Shown: in pieces, positions 3,710-26,233 of the stretch
Layout: every line of letters begins with the position of its first letter
Position numbering within the stretch: position 1 is the stretch's first letter
Origin: a virus
Lineage: Duplodnaviria > Caudoviricetes
Virus record (IMG/VR): IMGVR_UViG_3300042542_005523
Strand: one strand, 5' to 3'
DNA length: 64,000 nt
The notes under the pieces: generated by a model
What the model was told of the DNA's origin: nothing
What the model saw: only the letters and a program-made list of their open reading frames with translations
The model's database searches: none
Position numbers and translations under genes: made by a program

Positions 3710-3718
3710 GATATATAG
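3710..3718 (+). promoter_or_regulatory. Late-type promoter GATATATAG
   Basis: Recurrent motif, about 30 nt upstream of neck gene; variant of T4 late TATAAATA. Confidence 0.65.
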
Positions 3719-20648: not shown

Positions 20649-21338
20649 ATGGCAGATTACCCACAGATCCAACAGGAGTCAAATAACTTAAATTACGACG
20701 GAGGAGGTAGTACAGGCGGTACATATACCCAAACTGTACAGGGTGGATCTACTAGTGCGCCAGTTTTCACACCTGGTGCTTGTACTTTTACTGCTAGATA
20801 CACTAACGTTGCTCGAACAAGGGAAGCATTACCGCTGATAGATTGGACGTTTAAGTATAAGAACCAACCTGCTTTTTTTAAATACTTCAAGTCCTCTTTT
20901 AATGTGTGCCTGCAGTCAAATGTGATGGATACTCTGAGCTTAGCTTCTTTTTTTCATCCTTTTCTTTCTTTCTCTAGTTACCAAAAGCAAACATTTGTAA
21001 TAGCTCCGGATACTTCAATCGATGTAGATACTGGTAATTTTGCCAACACATTAAACGAGGTTAGCTTTATATTGGCAAGAGCTTATTATCTACCGACACA
21101 AAAGGGAGCTGCTAGAGTATTATTTTGGGACTACGACGGAAACACTAGATACCCGATGGGTGAAATAATGGTTTTAACCGGCGCTGTAAAAGAGGATCAG
21201 AATTGGAAGGGGTGGAATATAAGTTCTTTCTCTAATATAGGTCACACAGGTCCTGTATCCAATCCTAGTTTGGGTGGCATCACCTTTACAAACCCAACCG
21301 AATCGCCAGTTAAACTGGTAGTAATAACAGCAAACTAA
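20649..21338 (+). CDS. Putative virion protein, paralog A
   Basis: Late promoter; C-half aligns by eye with next gene (FILARAYY..FWDY..MGEIMVLTG..GWN..GGITFTNP). Confidence 0.55.
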   Translation: MADYPQIQQESNNLNYDGGGSTGGTYTQTVQGGSTSAPVFTPGACTFTARYTNVARTREALPLIDWTFKYKNQPAFFKYFKSSFNVCLQSNVMDTLSLASFFHPFLSFSSYQKQTFVIAPDTSIDVDTGNFANTLNEVSFILARAYYLPTQKGAARVLFWDYDGNTRYPMGEIMVLTGAVKEDQNWKGWNISSFSNIGHTGPVSNPSLGGITFTNPTESPVKLVVITAN

Positions 21339-21339
21339 T

Positions 21340-21825
21340 ATGGCAACAAGACCCGTTATATGTCCCTATATAGAACCAGAGGGATTGAAATTCGAAAGAA
21401 CTAACCTGGTTATAGATTCAAACAGCATGATGAATCCTCAAATAGTGCTTATGTTAGAGGATTTGTTATTTGATGTTCCTGCATATTCAAAATCCACAAT
21501 AAATCTTAGAGCTGAATCCTGCGCACTGATAAGCCAGTCGGACATAGCGGATCCTGGAGGGTACGTTAGCTTTATAGCTATTAAAGCAGTATACCCAGCT
21601 GGGACTTTAGAAAAAGACAAGTTCATTACATGGGAGTACAGGGGCAATGAATATTTTATGGGCGAACTTACTGTATTGAGCGGTGTTAATATCACAACTT
21701 TTGATTCTGAGCAATATGGATGGAATCTGGCTAAACCTGGACCAGTATACCAGGACGGAGGCATAACGGTGTGTAATCCCCACTTAGATAAAAGGGTAAT
21801 TTTAGAGATATTGGTTTGCAGATAA
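21340..21825 (+). CDS. Putative virion protein, paralog B
   Basis: FIAIKAVY..TWEY..MGELTVLSG..GWN..GGITVCNP. Confidence 0.55.
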   Translation: MATRPVICPYIEPEGLKFERTNLVIDSNSMMNPQIVLMLEDLLFDVPAYSKSTINLRAESCALISQSDIADPGGYVSFIAIKAVYPAGTLEKDKFITWEYRGNEYFMGELTVLSGVNITTFDSEQYGWNLAKPGPVYQDGGITVCNPHLDKRVILEILVCR

Positions 21826-21826
21826 T

Positions 21827-21865
21827 GATATATAGACCAAAAAGTACTCTGAAAAAGATATATAG
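21827..21865 (+). promoter_or_regulatory. Tandem late-type promoters GATATATAG (21827 and 21857)
   Basis: Two exact copies 30 bp apart upstream of ATG 21888. Confidence 0.7.
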
Positions 21866-21887
21866 AATACAAAAAAATTATTAACTC

Positions 21888-24482
21888 ATGGACTTCATTA
21901 ACAAAGTACAAAAATTAAAAGAAACTACTACCTCACCGGAGGTTAAATCTCTGTGTGAGAACTTCTTAAACGAGGCATCAAATAAAAATACCCTTATAGA
22001 GGGACTTAAAAATTCCAATGATGTTGAGGTTTCTGGTTTCTTAAGAGAAAATACATCAAACATCTGGAATGATTTCAGAAATCAAGAAATGGAAGCTTCC
22101 AAAAGAGCAGCTTCTTCACTTTTGGAATCTTGGAGCCAGAATACATCTAAAGGAGATAATTCCGGAACTTGGATTACGCCTTCTAAAGAAAAATCAGGTG
22201 ATAAAGAGATGAGTTCTTTAAACGAGTCCCTTTCTCACATAAAAGGTGATAAATCTGTTAATTCTTTTTTAACTTCTGAGTCTATTAAAAATCTAGGTGT
22301 TCTTGAGTCTGTTAAGTCTCTTCTTAGTTCACCTGTTGCCGAGCACATGAAGGCTAAGATCATGTTAGAGAATTATAAAAATATCCTTGTTAATAAGAAT
22401 ATCCCAGAGTATGCAGTTATTGAAAATTTTGTTAATGATTTAAGCCAATTGACATGGGATGCTAAATCTAAGGAGGTCTTTGAATCACTTCTAGGTAAAG
22501 CTAATACTTACAACAGAGAGATATACGTTTCTAAAGTGATAGATTCTATTAAGGGATCTGGATCTAGAGAATTTTACTCTGATCTTTATGAGTGTTTAAA
22601 TGAGTGGATGGTATCTAAAGACAAGTCAAACGGTCTCCTAGTTAATCAAATCTCTAAATATTCTTTCAATCCTGTAGTTAAAAACCTTATAAACTATTTG
22701 AATCTTAACGAAAGTCGAAAAGATTCAAGCAGACTTTCTATCCCTGAAACTAATCAAGGTGAATCATACGTAGAGAGAGCTTATTCCGCAATGGCAACTA
22801 ATGAGGATCAAAATTTCGCATTTGGCCTTGGTGGATTTATTTTCGAAGCAACAGAGAATGGCGTACAGAGAATAGACGCTAAGACTGCAGCTTCTTCATA
22901 CGGTAATACATTTGTTAATCTATTGGGAATTACTTCTAGACCCGATGTTAAGATAAATGAAGCGGGTGTTCATTTCTCAATCGGCAAGAAGGTAGTTAGT
23001 ATAACAGAAGGAACGGAGAATAATCCTAATGTATTTGTTGGTAGAAATAAATTAGCTTTCTCTAATGTTAACGAAATGGCTAAGATAATAGGATTGGAAG
23101 TATCCTCTTATATGGGATATAATGATATGTCTCTTGTAAAAGATATAGCTACCGTTTATGAAAATTACAATTCTTTCGTGGAGCTTGATTTTGCTAAGTC
23201 GATCGTATCTAGAATTTACGAGGGACTTTCTGTTAATCTGTTCAAATGGAACGATAAGATCTACCTTCAAAGAATAAATGAAGCTATGAGAGAGAATTCA
23301 ATATTCTCTGTTAATAGCATGCAAGCTGTTAAGTTAGTAAAAGACACATTAAGATATGATATTTCTGAAGGTCTAAGCGAATTCTTGGTTGGTGAATTAA
23401 GAACTAAATCGGTTCTTCTAAATGACAGATCTAGTCTTCTTGAAAACATACAAAATGTTGAGGAACAGTTGGCCAAAGTTCAATCCTTGATAGAAAATCC
23501 TAACTACTCGCATTCGTCTGAGCTTAAAGAAGCAGAGAAAATGCTAAAAAGGGAATTGAAGGTTTTAAGAAATAAATGGGCTAGCATCAACGAGGAGATC
23601 GAGAAAATTGAAAATGTTGATTTAGATCCTAGCATGTACCTTATAGAGGATGCTAAATTTAATATAGGAGACTATGTTAAAATAAAAGAATCAGGAGAAA
23701 CCGGTAAAATCGTTTCAATAGACGGTACTTCGGGAAGATATACAATTTTAACCGATGCGGGTAGAACAGAGGATCATAGAGTAAATGATATTCAAGATTT
23801 AGAGGAAGCTATGTCAGATGCAGCAGAAAAAAATGCTGAAAAGACAAGTGATTTCGATAAAGACTATTTCGACAATGATCCTGCTAGTGATATAGAAAGT
23901 GACGAGTCTGAAGAAGAGGATGGCACCGAGGAAGTAAAGGAATCAAATACTACTTTATCTAAAGCACCTACGAGAACTAAAAATGTTAAAGAAAAGCAAT
24001 CACAGCCAACATATGCTAAAGCTCCTAGATCTAAGGATCAGGAGAAACCAATGGCTCACGACCTAAAGAATCCTAAAGCTGCCCATTATGCGGAAGGAAT
24101 TAAAGGACAAAAGCCAACAGATTTCGATGTTGCTGGATATGCTATTGGTTATAATATCGACGAAGCTAGCGAAGTAGAAGATAGATCTCAAGGATTAGCA
24201 GAAGCTCCTAATTTCGGTAAAATTGAGAGAACGCACGATAAAAATGCTTTAGCTGGTATGGCACAGAAACACGGATATGCGAAAGCTCCAGGAAGCAATG
24301 ACAAAATAGATCTTTCACTGGATTTGCTGCATGGATATAGAAAGGTAGAAGAAGGAGTGGCTACTAAATCGGGCCCAAATACTGCTACCTCTAGAAGCAA
24401 GCACAGAGATGCTATAGACTTTGGAGTAAATGACAAGCTCAGATATAACTTAGAAGAATCTGAATTGCAAAAAAAAAAGTAA
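21888..24482 (+). CDS. Large putative prohead core/internal head protein
   Basis: 864 aa, late promoters, many [LIV]xE-[SA] sites (FLNEAS, LRENT, LLES, LNES, VKES, LEES), KOW-like FNIGDYVKIKESGETGKIV, KAP repeats at C-terminus. Confidence 0.6.
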   Translation: MDFINKVQKLKETTTSPEVKSLCENFLNEASNKNTLIEGLKNSNDVEVSGFLRENTSNIWNDFRNQEMEASKRAASSLLESWSQNTSKGDNSGTWITPSKEKSGDKEMSSLNESLSHIKGDKSVNSFLTSESIKNLGVLESVKSLLSSPVAEHMKAKIMLENYKNILVNKNIPEYAVIENFVNDLSQLTWDAKSKEVFESLLGKANTYNREIYVSKVIDSIKGSGSREFYSDLYECLNEWMVSKDKSNGLLVNQISKYSFNPVVKNLINYLNLNESRKDSSRLSIPETNQGESYVERAYSAMATNEDQNFAFGLGGFIFEATENGVQRIDAKTAASSYGNTFVNLLGITSRPDVKINEAGVHFSIGKKVVSITEGTENNPNVFVGRNKLAFSNVNEMAKIIGLEVSSYMGYNDMSLVKDIATVYENYNSFVELDFAKSIVSRIYEGLSVNLFKWNDKIYLQRINEAMRENSIFSVNSMQAVKLVKDTLRYDISEGLSEFLVGELRTKSVLLNDRSSLLENIQNVEEQLAKVQSLIENPNYSHSSELKEAEKMLKRELKVLRNKWASINEEIEKIENVDLDPSMYLIEDAKFNIGDYVKIKESGETGKIVSIDGTSGRYTILTDAGRTEDHRVNDIQDLEEAMSDAAEKNAEKTSDFDKDYFDNDPASDIESDESEEEDGTEEVKESNTTLSKAPTRTKNVKEKQSQPTYAKAPRSKDQEKPMAHDLKNPKAAHYAEGIKGQKPTDFDVAGYAIGYNIDEASEVEDRSQGLAEAPNFGKIERTHDKNALAGMAQKHGYAKAPGSNDKIDLSLDLLHGYRKVEEGVATKSGPNTATSRSKHRDAIDFGVNDKLRYNLEESELQKKK

Positions 24483-24640
24483 GTCGTAACTATTATTTTG
24501 CTCCTGAGAATCCAGAACAAAATAAATCAGGTAAGCCTTTCGTAGATTCTCTAAAGGGAAAGTTCGCAAAGGCTCCAACTAAGCCGATAAACAAACACGT
24601 AGAGGACAGCGAGGAAGACGAGGCCGAAACAAACAAGTAA
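24479..24640 (+). CDS. -1 frame continuation (53 aa) of the 864-aa head protein
   Basis: Open frame VSRNYYFAPENPEQNKSGKPFVDSLKGKFAKAPTKPINKHVEDSEEDEAETNK* begins at the A10G run; no start codon of its own; shares the KAP motif. Confidence 0.6.
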   Translation, partial: VSRNYYFAPENPEQNKSGKPFVDSLKGKFAKAPTKPINKHVEDSEEDEAETNK

Positions 24641-24688
24641 AAGCTTAATATAAAGATAAATTCTAAAATTTAAGCACAAAGATAAAAT

Positions 24689-24724
24689 ATCCCCTGTTTC
24701 TAATAAGAATGGGGGATTTTTTTT
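24689..24724 (+). terminator. Probable intrinsic terminator
   Basis: ATCCCC...GGGGAT stem followed by T8; lies after the -1 frame stop. Confidence 0.55.
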
Positions 24725-24745
24725 GCACATAAAAAACCCCGCAGA

Positions 24746-25105
24746 ATGGCAAAAGTTTATGTTAAAAACAGTGAGCTCCTTAGAGCCGTATCCGAATCTA
24801 AAGAGAAGGGTCAGCTAACAAGAGAGACAATCGATATGTTTACCCTCATGATAGAAGGTATTTCTAAGAAGATGGCTTACAAGGATCCTGACGATAAGGA
24901 CGATTGTATGGCTTTTGCCATGGAGGATCTTTGCAAATATTGGAATAGATTTGACCCTGCTAAATCTAACAATCCATTTGCCTACTTCACTCAGGTTGCA
25001 AAGAATGGATTTGCTAAGGGATGGAAGAAATTACACCCGCCAAAGAATCCTAAAACTATACCCTTCAGTTATATAACAGGGGAGGATAATAGTTACAACG
25101 TTTAA
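24746..25105 (+). CDS. gp55: T4 gp55-like late sigma factor (short)
   Basis: YVKNSELL, DDCMAFAMEDLCKYWNRFDPAKSNNPFAYFTQVAKN. Confidence 0.8.
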   Translation: MAKVYVKNSELLRAVSESKEKGQLTRETIDMFTLMIEGISKKMAYKDPDDKDDCMAFAMEDLCKYWNRFDPAKSNNPFAYFTQVAKNGFAKGWKKLHPPKNPKTIPFSYITGEDNSYNV

Positions 25106-25106
25106 T

Positions 25107-25592
25107 ATGTCCATAAAAAAGGTTAAACCTAACGGAAAACACAAACATGGGCTTTATAGTCCACAGAATCCCGATAAGTACATAGGTGATATACATAATA
25201 TCATTTATAGATCTTCGTGGGAGCAGAGATTCTGTGCATATTGCGATAGAAACGAAAGGATAGTTAAATGGAGCTCTGAACCTCTTTTTATAGATTACTG
25301 GAATCCATTAGATAAGAAAATGCACAAATACTATGTGGATTTTTACATAAAGACTCTAAAAGAAGACGACACCTATCAGGAGTGGATAATAGAGGTTAAG
25401 CCAGAGTCACAAACTCAAAAGCCGATATACGAGGGTAAAAATATGACTCTTAAAAAACTAGAGAGCTATAACTATAATATGAAAATATGGATAACAAATC
25501 AGGCAAAATTTAAAGCTGCTAAAGAATGGGCTATCCAAAGAGGTTTTAGATTTGGCGTAGTTGACGAGAAATTTCTTTTTAATAGTAAATGA
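25107..25592 (+). CDS. gp4: Head completion nuclease (T4 gp4-like, TnsA-like fold)
   Basis: IYRSSWEQRFC.YCD, KWSSE, KYYVDF, IEVKP, NQAKFKAAKEW. Confidence 0.85.
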   Translation: MSIKKVKPNGKHKHGLYSPQNPDKYIGDIHNIIYRSSWEQRFCAYCDRNERIVKWSSEPLFIDYWNPLDKKMHKYYVDFYIKTLKEDDTYQEWIIEVKPESQTQKPIYEGKNMTLKKLESYNYNMKIWITNQAKFKAAKEWAIQRGFRFGVVDEKFLFNSK

Positions 25593-26233
25593 GCTTTTCT
25601 GAAAAAATAAAATCATACAAGGACGGATTCATATCCCAATCTGAGACTGTTTCTAAAACTGACGAGTATTTTATAAGCTCCTATATAAAGTTATCGAACA
25701 GGGATTTTCGACCTGAAAAGTTCGACGGCCAATTTCTTCCCGGTAAGATCTATATTTTTAGATATAATCCTAAGCAGAAACCCGATGACGGTAAAAAAAA
25801 GGAGAAGGAGTTCATAAACAGACTACCGATAGTTTTAGCTTTTGATGTTAAGAAATCAAAAGATCTAAACAACATCCTATATGGATCGGATTTAATAGCT
25901 ACCCCACCTGATGAAAGAGTTAAGATATTGGAGAGGGTCTATGATTTTTCAGAGAGCATAATAGATTCTAATAAAAAATCGGGAAGCCAATCTCCCGTGA
26001 ACCTAAGTGGTGATAATGTAAAGTCTTTATTGAAAGGTACTGGGTATATTGGAAGCACTAAAGGATTCGATATTTCATCAATGTCTGAAGTCTATGTTAT
26101 AGGCTATGATGATTGGAAAAAAATACCATATCTTAGTGTAGCCCTTCTTCAAGGGTCTTCTCCGATTGAGATATATAATTCCTATAGATCGAAATTAAAA
26201 GATAATTCTGGTCTAGAAAATAAAAATAAGTAG
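25589..26233 (+). CDS. DNA end protector-like protein (T4 gp2-like)
   Basis: PGKIYIFRYNPK, RLPIVL; follows gp4 as in T4-like genomes. Confidence 0.55.
   Translation: MSFSEKIKSYKDGFISQSETVSKTDEYFISSYIKLSNRDFRPEKFDGQFLPGKIYIFRYNPKQKPDDGKKKEKEFINRLPIVLAFDVKKSKDLNNILYGSDLIATPPDERVKILERVYDFSESIIDSNKKSGSQSPVNLSGDNVKSLLKGTGYIGSTKGFDISSMSEVYVIGYDDWKKIPYLSVALLQGSSPIEIYNSYRSKLKDNSGLENKNK
26170..26178 (+). promoter_or_regulatory. Candidate late promoter GATATATAA for portal genes (within end of upstream CDS)
   Basis: Motif match about 59 nt upstream of ATG 26237. Confidence 0.4.

Follow-up and report, generated by a model that had tools for sequence, protein, structure and literature searches.

A gene for a protein of 864 amino acids (aa) in the Caudoviricetes record IMGVR_UViG_3300042542_005523 of IMG/VR, an uncultured giant (large) lake phage, ends on a run of ten A's (A10), and the reading frame at -1 to it continues past its stop for another 53 codons. 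We call the whole stretch of DNA that was analysed, 64,000 nucleotides (nt) long, the window, and the peptide encoded by the -1 frame the tail. Comparison of the junction among related phages indicates a genuine recoding signal with deep conservation, and a tail that belongs to the 864-aa protein. Of the two machines that could join the tail to the protein, RNA polymerase slipping on the A run is moderately favoured over the ribosome. The predicted long form comprises 917 aa (864 + 53). A preliminary description, made from the letters of this DNA, had proposed a programmed -1 frameshift at this place; the end of the open reading frame (ORF), the A10 run followed by G, and the 53-codon frame without a start codon are all located where it had put them (Table 1). 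The claim of programmed recoding also stands, since run, stop and -1 tail are shared by relatives. Nor is the run a chance feature: the window has no other run of nine or more A's or T's, and run and tail recur together in related junctions.

We fetched 80 related IMG/VR loci, which are 36-94% identical and many of which lie on contigs of 100-434 kb, and found the tail peptide in 71 of them. There are 52 distinct junction sequences, which form 17 clusters when grouped at 20% nucleotide distance and 38 when grouped at 10%. The A run is A9 in 41 of the 52 and A10 in 11, and it is never shorter. A standard layout, NNA AAA AAA AAN, a stop and then the tail in the -1 frame, is found in 48. In these standard junctions, the -1 frame is 48-55 codons long, save in locus L029, where it overruns the usual stop and reaches 77 codons. 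TAA serves as the stop in 43 and TAG in five, and the final codon before the stop is AAC (29), AAG (15), AAT (3) or AAA (1). The two Lys codons of the run are invariably AAA, which makes up 68% of the Lys codons in the window ORF overall. The codon ahead of them is TTA, GTA, CAA, GAA or CTA, with A always in the third position, compared with a baseline of 33% of codons ending in A in the window ORF.

The protein end is conserved in the same way. The C-terminus is KKK, KKN or KKS in 109 of 120 homologs among the matches listed, and the two lysines before the last residue are invariant in 28 aligned members, of which the least similar have 43% identity. Therefore, the annotated protein normally ends at the stop that follows the run, and this end is no assembly accident. 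Some loci keep the arrangement in altered form. The more distant L091, with 40% identity across 774 residues, carries A9, T TGA and a diverged tail (...SKVWSFAPEN...GKMSVAPDGK...DEKQ), and the clade of L092 has A9, GT, TAA and then the tail. Homologs thus do stop at a KKK-type poly-A run with a conserved -1 tail, which the preliminary description had named as a check of its claim. Among known phages, megablast with positions 21000-26000 gave no match, nor did tblastn with the tail; tblastn with the protein gave only distant matches, in Lak megaphages and in LR756500.1, both of which are without the run and the tail.

The tail frame has the marks of a coding sequence. Its consensus is LSRNFYFAP..QN.PG..FV.S..GKLSKAP.GK followed by an acidic end; the tail of the window reads VSRNYYFAP...GKFAKAP... 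and then an acidic end (from 24479, VSRNYYFAPENPEQNK...KFAKAPTKP...EEDEAETNK). Over 37 gap-free codons, entropy at codon positions 1, 2 and 3 is 0.77, 0.59 and 1.34. The ratio of nonsynonymous to synonymous variation (pN/pS) in the tail frame is 0.39, with no stops in the 52 sequences, while in the other two frames the ratio is above 1 and there are 123 and 237 stops. These comparisons indicate purifying selection on the tail frame.

In some clades, body and tail share one reading frame, and thus the tail is a part of the protein. The tail stands in the zero frame as ...KKNPSRNFYFAP...EKE or ...EKQ in L060/L061 and in the homologs P0093, P0115 and P0118, to which the loci L094 and L095, taken from NCBI metagenome assemblies, belong. 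When the in-frame form is compared with its nearest frameshifted relative, L047, an indel just 5′ of the run makes the difference and the length of the run does not. Furthermore, the distant loci L077 and L080 lack the motif-rich C-terminal region, yet they have an acidic end (...EKE or ...DKE) that resembles the end of the tail. The body and the tail also share a repeat. The KAP repeats of the preliminary description are there, with LSKAP, YAKAP, LAEAP and YAKAP at residues 690, 709, 770 and 797; these are four [LY][AS]xAP motifs in the body of the window protein, where relatives have three to six, and the tail supplies two more (YYFAP and FAKAP). The series of lineages points to a functional C-terminal module that has two [FYL][AS]xAP motifs and an acidic end.

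We propose the following course of events. Standard decoding of messenger RNA (mRNA) with A10 would give the 864-aa form, ending ...LQKKK. RNA polymerase would slip on the run, so that some transcripts would carry one extra A (CAA AAA AAA AAA GTA AGT), and normal translation of these A11 transcripts would run into the tail frame and give the 917-aa form. In the clade to which the window belongs, the ribosome may contribute by -1 slippage on A_AAA_AAG, which would yield an identical protein. The extension would add two [FYL][AS]xAP motifs and an acidic C-terminus. That both isoforms are made, in what ratio, and which machine slips are points that we infer, and the ratio of tail-bearing to tail-less copies would presumably matter in an assembly that is built late in infection.

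Slippage by RNA polymerase is probably the mechanism because nine or more A's in a row are the invariant element, the base that follows them can vary and no RNA structure is conserved. Bacterial RNA polymerase slips at high efficiency in vivo on runs of nine A's or T's (PMC5009743). The preliminary description, which put the dnaX-type heptamer A_AAA_AAG first, mentioned polymerase slippage as a possibility; given the invariant run, it fits better. The heptamer is in the window and in the right frame, but it is not the conserved element, because AAG occurs in 15 of the 48 standard junctions and AAC in 29. The 8-bp stem that had been noticed downstream fared similarly; it exists at its place, but it is confined to the closest clade and is no conserved stimulator. 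This stem needs TAT TAT TTT, and most clades have AAC TTC TAC TTC instead, so that it is lost outside the closest clade. In the window, the 8-bp pairing is not the minimum-energy fold of the 70 nt past the run. RNAalifold on 47 junctions gave no conserved downstream structure (-6 kcal/mol, no compensatory pairs near the site, mean z -0.43), and there was no upstream consensus across the junctions either (mean z -0.17). A 5-bp GAAUC/GAUUU hairpin adjoins the run on its upstream side in a subset of junctions only. A 4-nt core like a Shine-Dalgarno (SD) element lies 3-22 nt upstream in just 15 of the 52 junctions, which does not amount to a conserved SD-like stimulator.

Ribosomal -1 frameshifting may instead be the main route, an explanation that we regard as possible but rather unlikely. 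Tandem tRNAs would slip on A_AAA_AAG in the window's clade and on A_AAA_AAN or A_AAA_AAA in other clades, aided by the adjoining stop, and the run in the mRNA would have its genomic length. The classic bacterial heptamer is indeed present in the window in the right frame, and low-efficiency phage frameshifts without stimulators exist (PMC5009743). However, AAC is the dominant final codon among the standard junctions, and the AAC and AAA versions are far less shift-prone in E. coli (PMC5009743). In addition, the third-position A before the two Lys codons is invariant, yet the last heptamer has no need of it, and neither a 3′ structure nor a 5′ SD-like element is conserved. The A9 allele of L093, described below, puts the tail in the +1 frame, out of reach of a ribosomal -1 shift. 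Several observations nevertheless weigh against a firm choice of the polymerase. Every junction has a formal X_XXY_YYZ site (A_AAA_AAN, and A_AAA_AAA one codon earlier) with the stop next to it. An RNA contig of a relative (X19) spans the run with A10 and no gap, as the ribosomal route would have it, though contigs hide minor run-length variants; our read evidence consists of Logan contigs, of DNA and of RNA, which are blind to such variants. A9 is also retained where no slip is needed (L060/L061 and L063-L065), and thus a part of the conservation of the run may reflect the KK[KN] residues together with AAA codon bias. The tail need not act only as a fusion, for it also stands alone with its own ATG in L090 and L063-L065. 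In L090, where it is a separate in-frame ORF, the run has decayed to AAA AAG AAG. Lastly, for the host there is only a hint at Bacteroidota, from structural matches to Tenacibaculum phage proteins and sequence matches to Prevotella Lak phages, and this too counts against a firm choice. Two more RNA contigs come from this region: X15 covers 24518-24684, and X16 breaks off on the final A of the run (24478), which is at most a weak hint. The RNA runs covered parts of the stretch and had no indels listed; they show that the region is present in RNA libraries and speak for neither mechanism.

There is little chance that the tail is unjoined to the 864-aa protein, either as the decaying remnant of a C-terminus that was once in frame or as a separate small product that starts in an unconventional way. 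The stand-alone forms of L090 and L063-L065, which have an ATG of their own, would agree with such a separate peptide, as would public gene calls, where the tail appears as small ORFs of 48-79 aa. The tail frame of the window, however, holds no ATG, GTG or TTG in its 53 codons, and the listing of + strand ORFs is empty there. Purifying selection over 17 clusters, with not one stop in 52 sequences, rules out a decaying remnant, and the run, the stop and the tail keep exact register in 48 junctions.

We consider it very improbable that the frame break comes from a miscalled homopolymer, or that populations switch in their DNA between in-frame and out-of-frame run lengths. L093 (P0008), with A9 within an A10 clade, shows that some run-length variation or error exists. 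Yet the 48 standard junctions, from many samples, are all out of frame alike, no assembly of these clades has the in-frame run length, and the natural in-frame forms arise by an indel 5′ of the run and not by run length. As for the window itself, 14 DNA runs from separate samples, all of them lake-water metagenomes, contain every sampled word of its stretch (some may be the source sample), and a DNA contig agrees with it with zero differences. The homopolymer assembly error that the preliminary description kept as its alternative is therefore excluded by the recurrence of the run in many independent assemblies and in these 14 runs.

The closest parallels are with dnaX genes. The dnaX frameshift of E. 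coli employs an SD-like element 5′ of the site and a stem-loop 3′ of it. Our site has the identical heptamer A_AAA_AAG, in the same frame and near a stop, but the SD-like element and the stem-loop are not conserved, and most relatives have AAC for AAG. In Thermus thermophilus, tau and gamma are made from dnaX through slippage of transcription on a homopolymer run of nine bases (PMC5009743). The likeness lies in a coding run of about nine A's, where transcripts with extra A's lead to two proteins with the same N-terminus, different C-termini and a set ratio, and no RNA structure is required. The difference is that slipped transcripts give the shorter product in Thermus and would give the longer one here; the gene family and the biology differ as well, and slippage in our case is deduced. 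The in-frame relatives L060/L061 would resemble Thermus dnaX more, because their -1 frame reads ...KKKPQS and then a stop. Frameshifts at the 3′ end of phage genes are known from the major capsid gene 10 of T7 and T3 (10A/10B), from Listeria phages A118, A500 and PSA and from Lactobacillus phage A2 (PMC5009743). There too, a phage gene is lengthened at its 3′ end to give a minor longer isoform beside the main one, but the proteins are identified capsid or tail proteins and the sites are ribosomal and not poly-A, whereas ours is a homopolymer run. In Citrobacter rodentium, transcriptional frameshifting is described as rescuing the prematurely interrupted type VI secretion gene tssM (PMC4256274). 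Two length variants of one large protein are produced there by transcriptional frameshifting, as proposed here; that case is the rescue of an interrupted bacterial gene, while in the present one a whole phage family has kept the arrangement. The poly-A sites in Shigella type III secretion genes are a further parallel to the proposed mode of action (PMC5009743, PMC4256274). The poly-A slip device is thus already known, and what is new is its occurrence in this gene family, of which, as of this site, our literature searches found no description.

The model of the whole 864-aa protein has a predicted local distance difference test score (pLDDT) of 65 and a predicted template modelling score (pTM) of 0.35. 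It consists of a helical N-terminal region, an alpha/beta domain in the centre, a coiled-coil hairpin and an SH3-like small beta barrel; the C-terminal third is disordered. When modelled by itself, the central domain reached pLDDT 88 and pTM 0.82; against the PDB, its best VIA-align Z was 6.0, and Foldseek gave no match at an expectation value (E) of 0.001 or better. The whole-protein model likewise had no Foldseek match in the PDB at that threshold, and VIA-align matched only its coiled-coil hairpin, to generic helical hairpins. A profile search of the PDB with the protein returned no meaningful match, no PHROGs family was above the cut-off, and Pfam gave only a sub-threshold match to the MSSS SH3 family. 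In the ESM Atlas, the feature search returned only an unnamed viral cluster at 0.78, and the shape search stayed below a template modelling (TM) score of 0.25. Matches in BFVD are uncharacterised phage proteins, one of them from Tenacibaculum phage PTm1. The preliminary description called the product a head core protein; with no match to a Pfam, PHROG or PDB family, this label stays a guess. In P0118 and P0093 (L094, L095), which belong to the clade that has the tail in frame, a PG_binding_1 domain (PF01471; E 1e-13, passing the curated cut-off) is inserted at residues 122-172, and the counterpart of these residues in the window protein is a low-confidence loop in the model. The insert is a hint of contact with the cell wall, which would suit a virion protein that is ejected or one that acts at the lysis stage. 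No obvious signal peptide was seen by eye in the N-terminus.

The features of the locus are collected in Table 1.

Table 1. Positions in the window of the 864-aa gene, its putative slip site and the surrounding elements
Feature	Position	Strand	Remark
Zero-frame ORF, 864 aa (P0001)	21888-24482	+	Ends CAA AAA AAA AAG TAA
A10 run, candidate slip site	24469-24478	+	Includes A_AAA_AAG at 24473-24479; G at 24479
Zero-frame stop TAA adjoining A10G	24480-24482	+	Kept as TAA or TAG in standard junctions
-1 frame extension, 53 codons and TAA at 24638-24640	24479-24640	+	Conserved tail frame
AU-rich 8-bp inverted repeat, TTATTTTG and CAAAATAA	24493-24500, 24518-24525	+	Exact complements
Intrinsic-terminator-like hairpin and T8	24689-24725	+	11-pair stem at 24689-24717
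Candidate late-promoter motif, two copies of GATATATAG	21827-21835, 21857-21865	+	Upstream of the 864-aa gene

The terminator-like hairpin is positioned past the stop of the extension and ahead of the next gene at 24746, in agreement with the preliminary description, which had placed a terminator only after that stop. Equivalents with GGGGAT and a T run were seen in the five closest relatives. Upstream of the gene, the two promoter-like motifs belong to GATATATAR, of which the window has 14 sites against 3.2 expected, on the + strand only and mostly shortly 5′ of ORF starts (for example, at 3710, 8923, 21827, 21857, 34852, 37018, 40453, 44378, 50895 and 53040). GATATATAR is a candidate for the late promoter of this phage, and from these motifs the 864-aa gene appears to be late-expressed. 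The late promoter motif of T4, TATAAATA, showed no enrichment (11 matches against 9 expected). Genes 3′ of the 864-aa gene encode a gp55-like late sigma factor, a gp4-like head completion protein, a gp2-like DNA end protector and two portal-like proteins, and those 5′ of it include terminase, sheath and tube genes, some genes of nucleotide metabolism and several of unknown function.

A few lineages arrange the tail otherwise. In L090 (P0126), positions 211-450 hold a stand-alone ORF with its own ATG just past the stop of the body, and its product is tail-like (...WSFAPEN...GKMSVAPDGK...EEKE); P0125 likewise has a small stand-alone ORF with its own ATG for a tail-like peptide. In the single lineage of L063 (5281-5380, identical letter by letter in L064 and L065), ...STMNNEE TAA TAA closes the homolog, and an insert of 62 nt lies between it and the tail. 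When exactly 62 nt are removed from L063, from the take-off GAA to the second GAA, a single ORF results, ...STMNNEENADVKKNLSRNFYFAP..., which matches the natural in-frame fusions. This insert could be skipped by a translational bypass like that of gene 60, or its own ATG could give a separate tail protein of about 75 aa. In L093 (P0008, 2400-2480), A9 lies inside an A10 clade, the ORF ends ...QKKSKP and the tail is in the +1 frame. It is the sole such case seen, and it may be a rare run-length allele or a sequencing error. One idea, which we hold to be rather doubtful, is that the tail is an autonomous docking module, its dose tuned in different ways across the family: by polymerase slippage in most lineages, and elsewhere as an in-frame fusion that would lose the tail by slippage, as a free small protein and, in L063-L065, possibly as the product of a gene-60-like bypass. 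The junctions with AAG, AAC, AAT and AAA, the in-frame fusions, the split forms and the A9 allele make up a natural series that could separate polymerase slippage from ribosomal frameshifting. Gene callers end the gene at its zero-frame stop, and the tail is then left out or appears as a small, spurious ORF. The products annotated for this gene, which is widespread in uncultured giant lake phages, are thus probably incomplete or wrong.

The body of the protein also varies among close relatives. Between 23900 and 24482, the window protein lacks a segment of about 29 residues with two more motifs (LAVAP and FATAP), which P0003, P0005 and P0006 have. Close relatives with this segment are 893-897 aa long, and the number of motif repeats therefore differs between strains. 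P0002 (861 aa) is otherwise identical to P0001 but lacks SPV at residues of about 148-150 (window 22330-22340); it reads ...SLLSAEHMK where P0001 reads ...SLLSSPVAEHMK, a small in-frame indel variant in the population.

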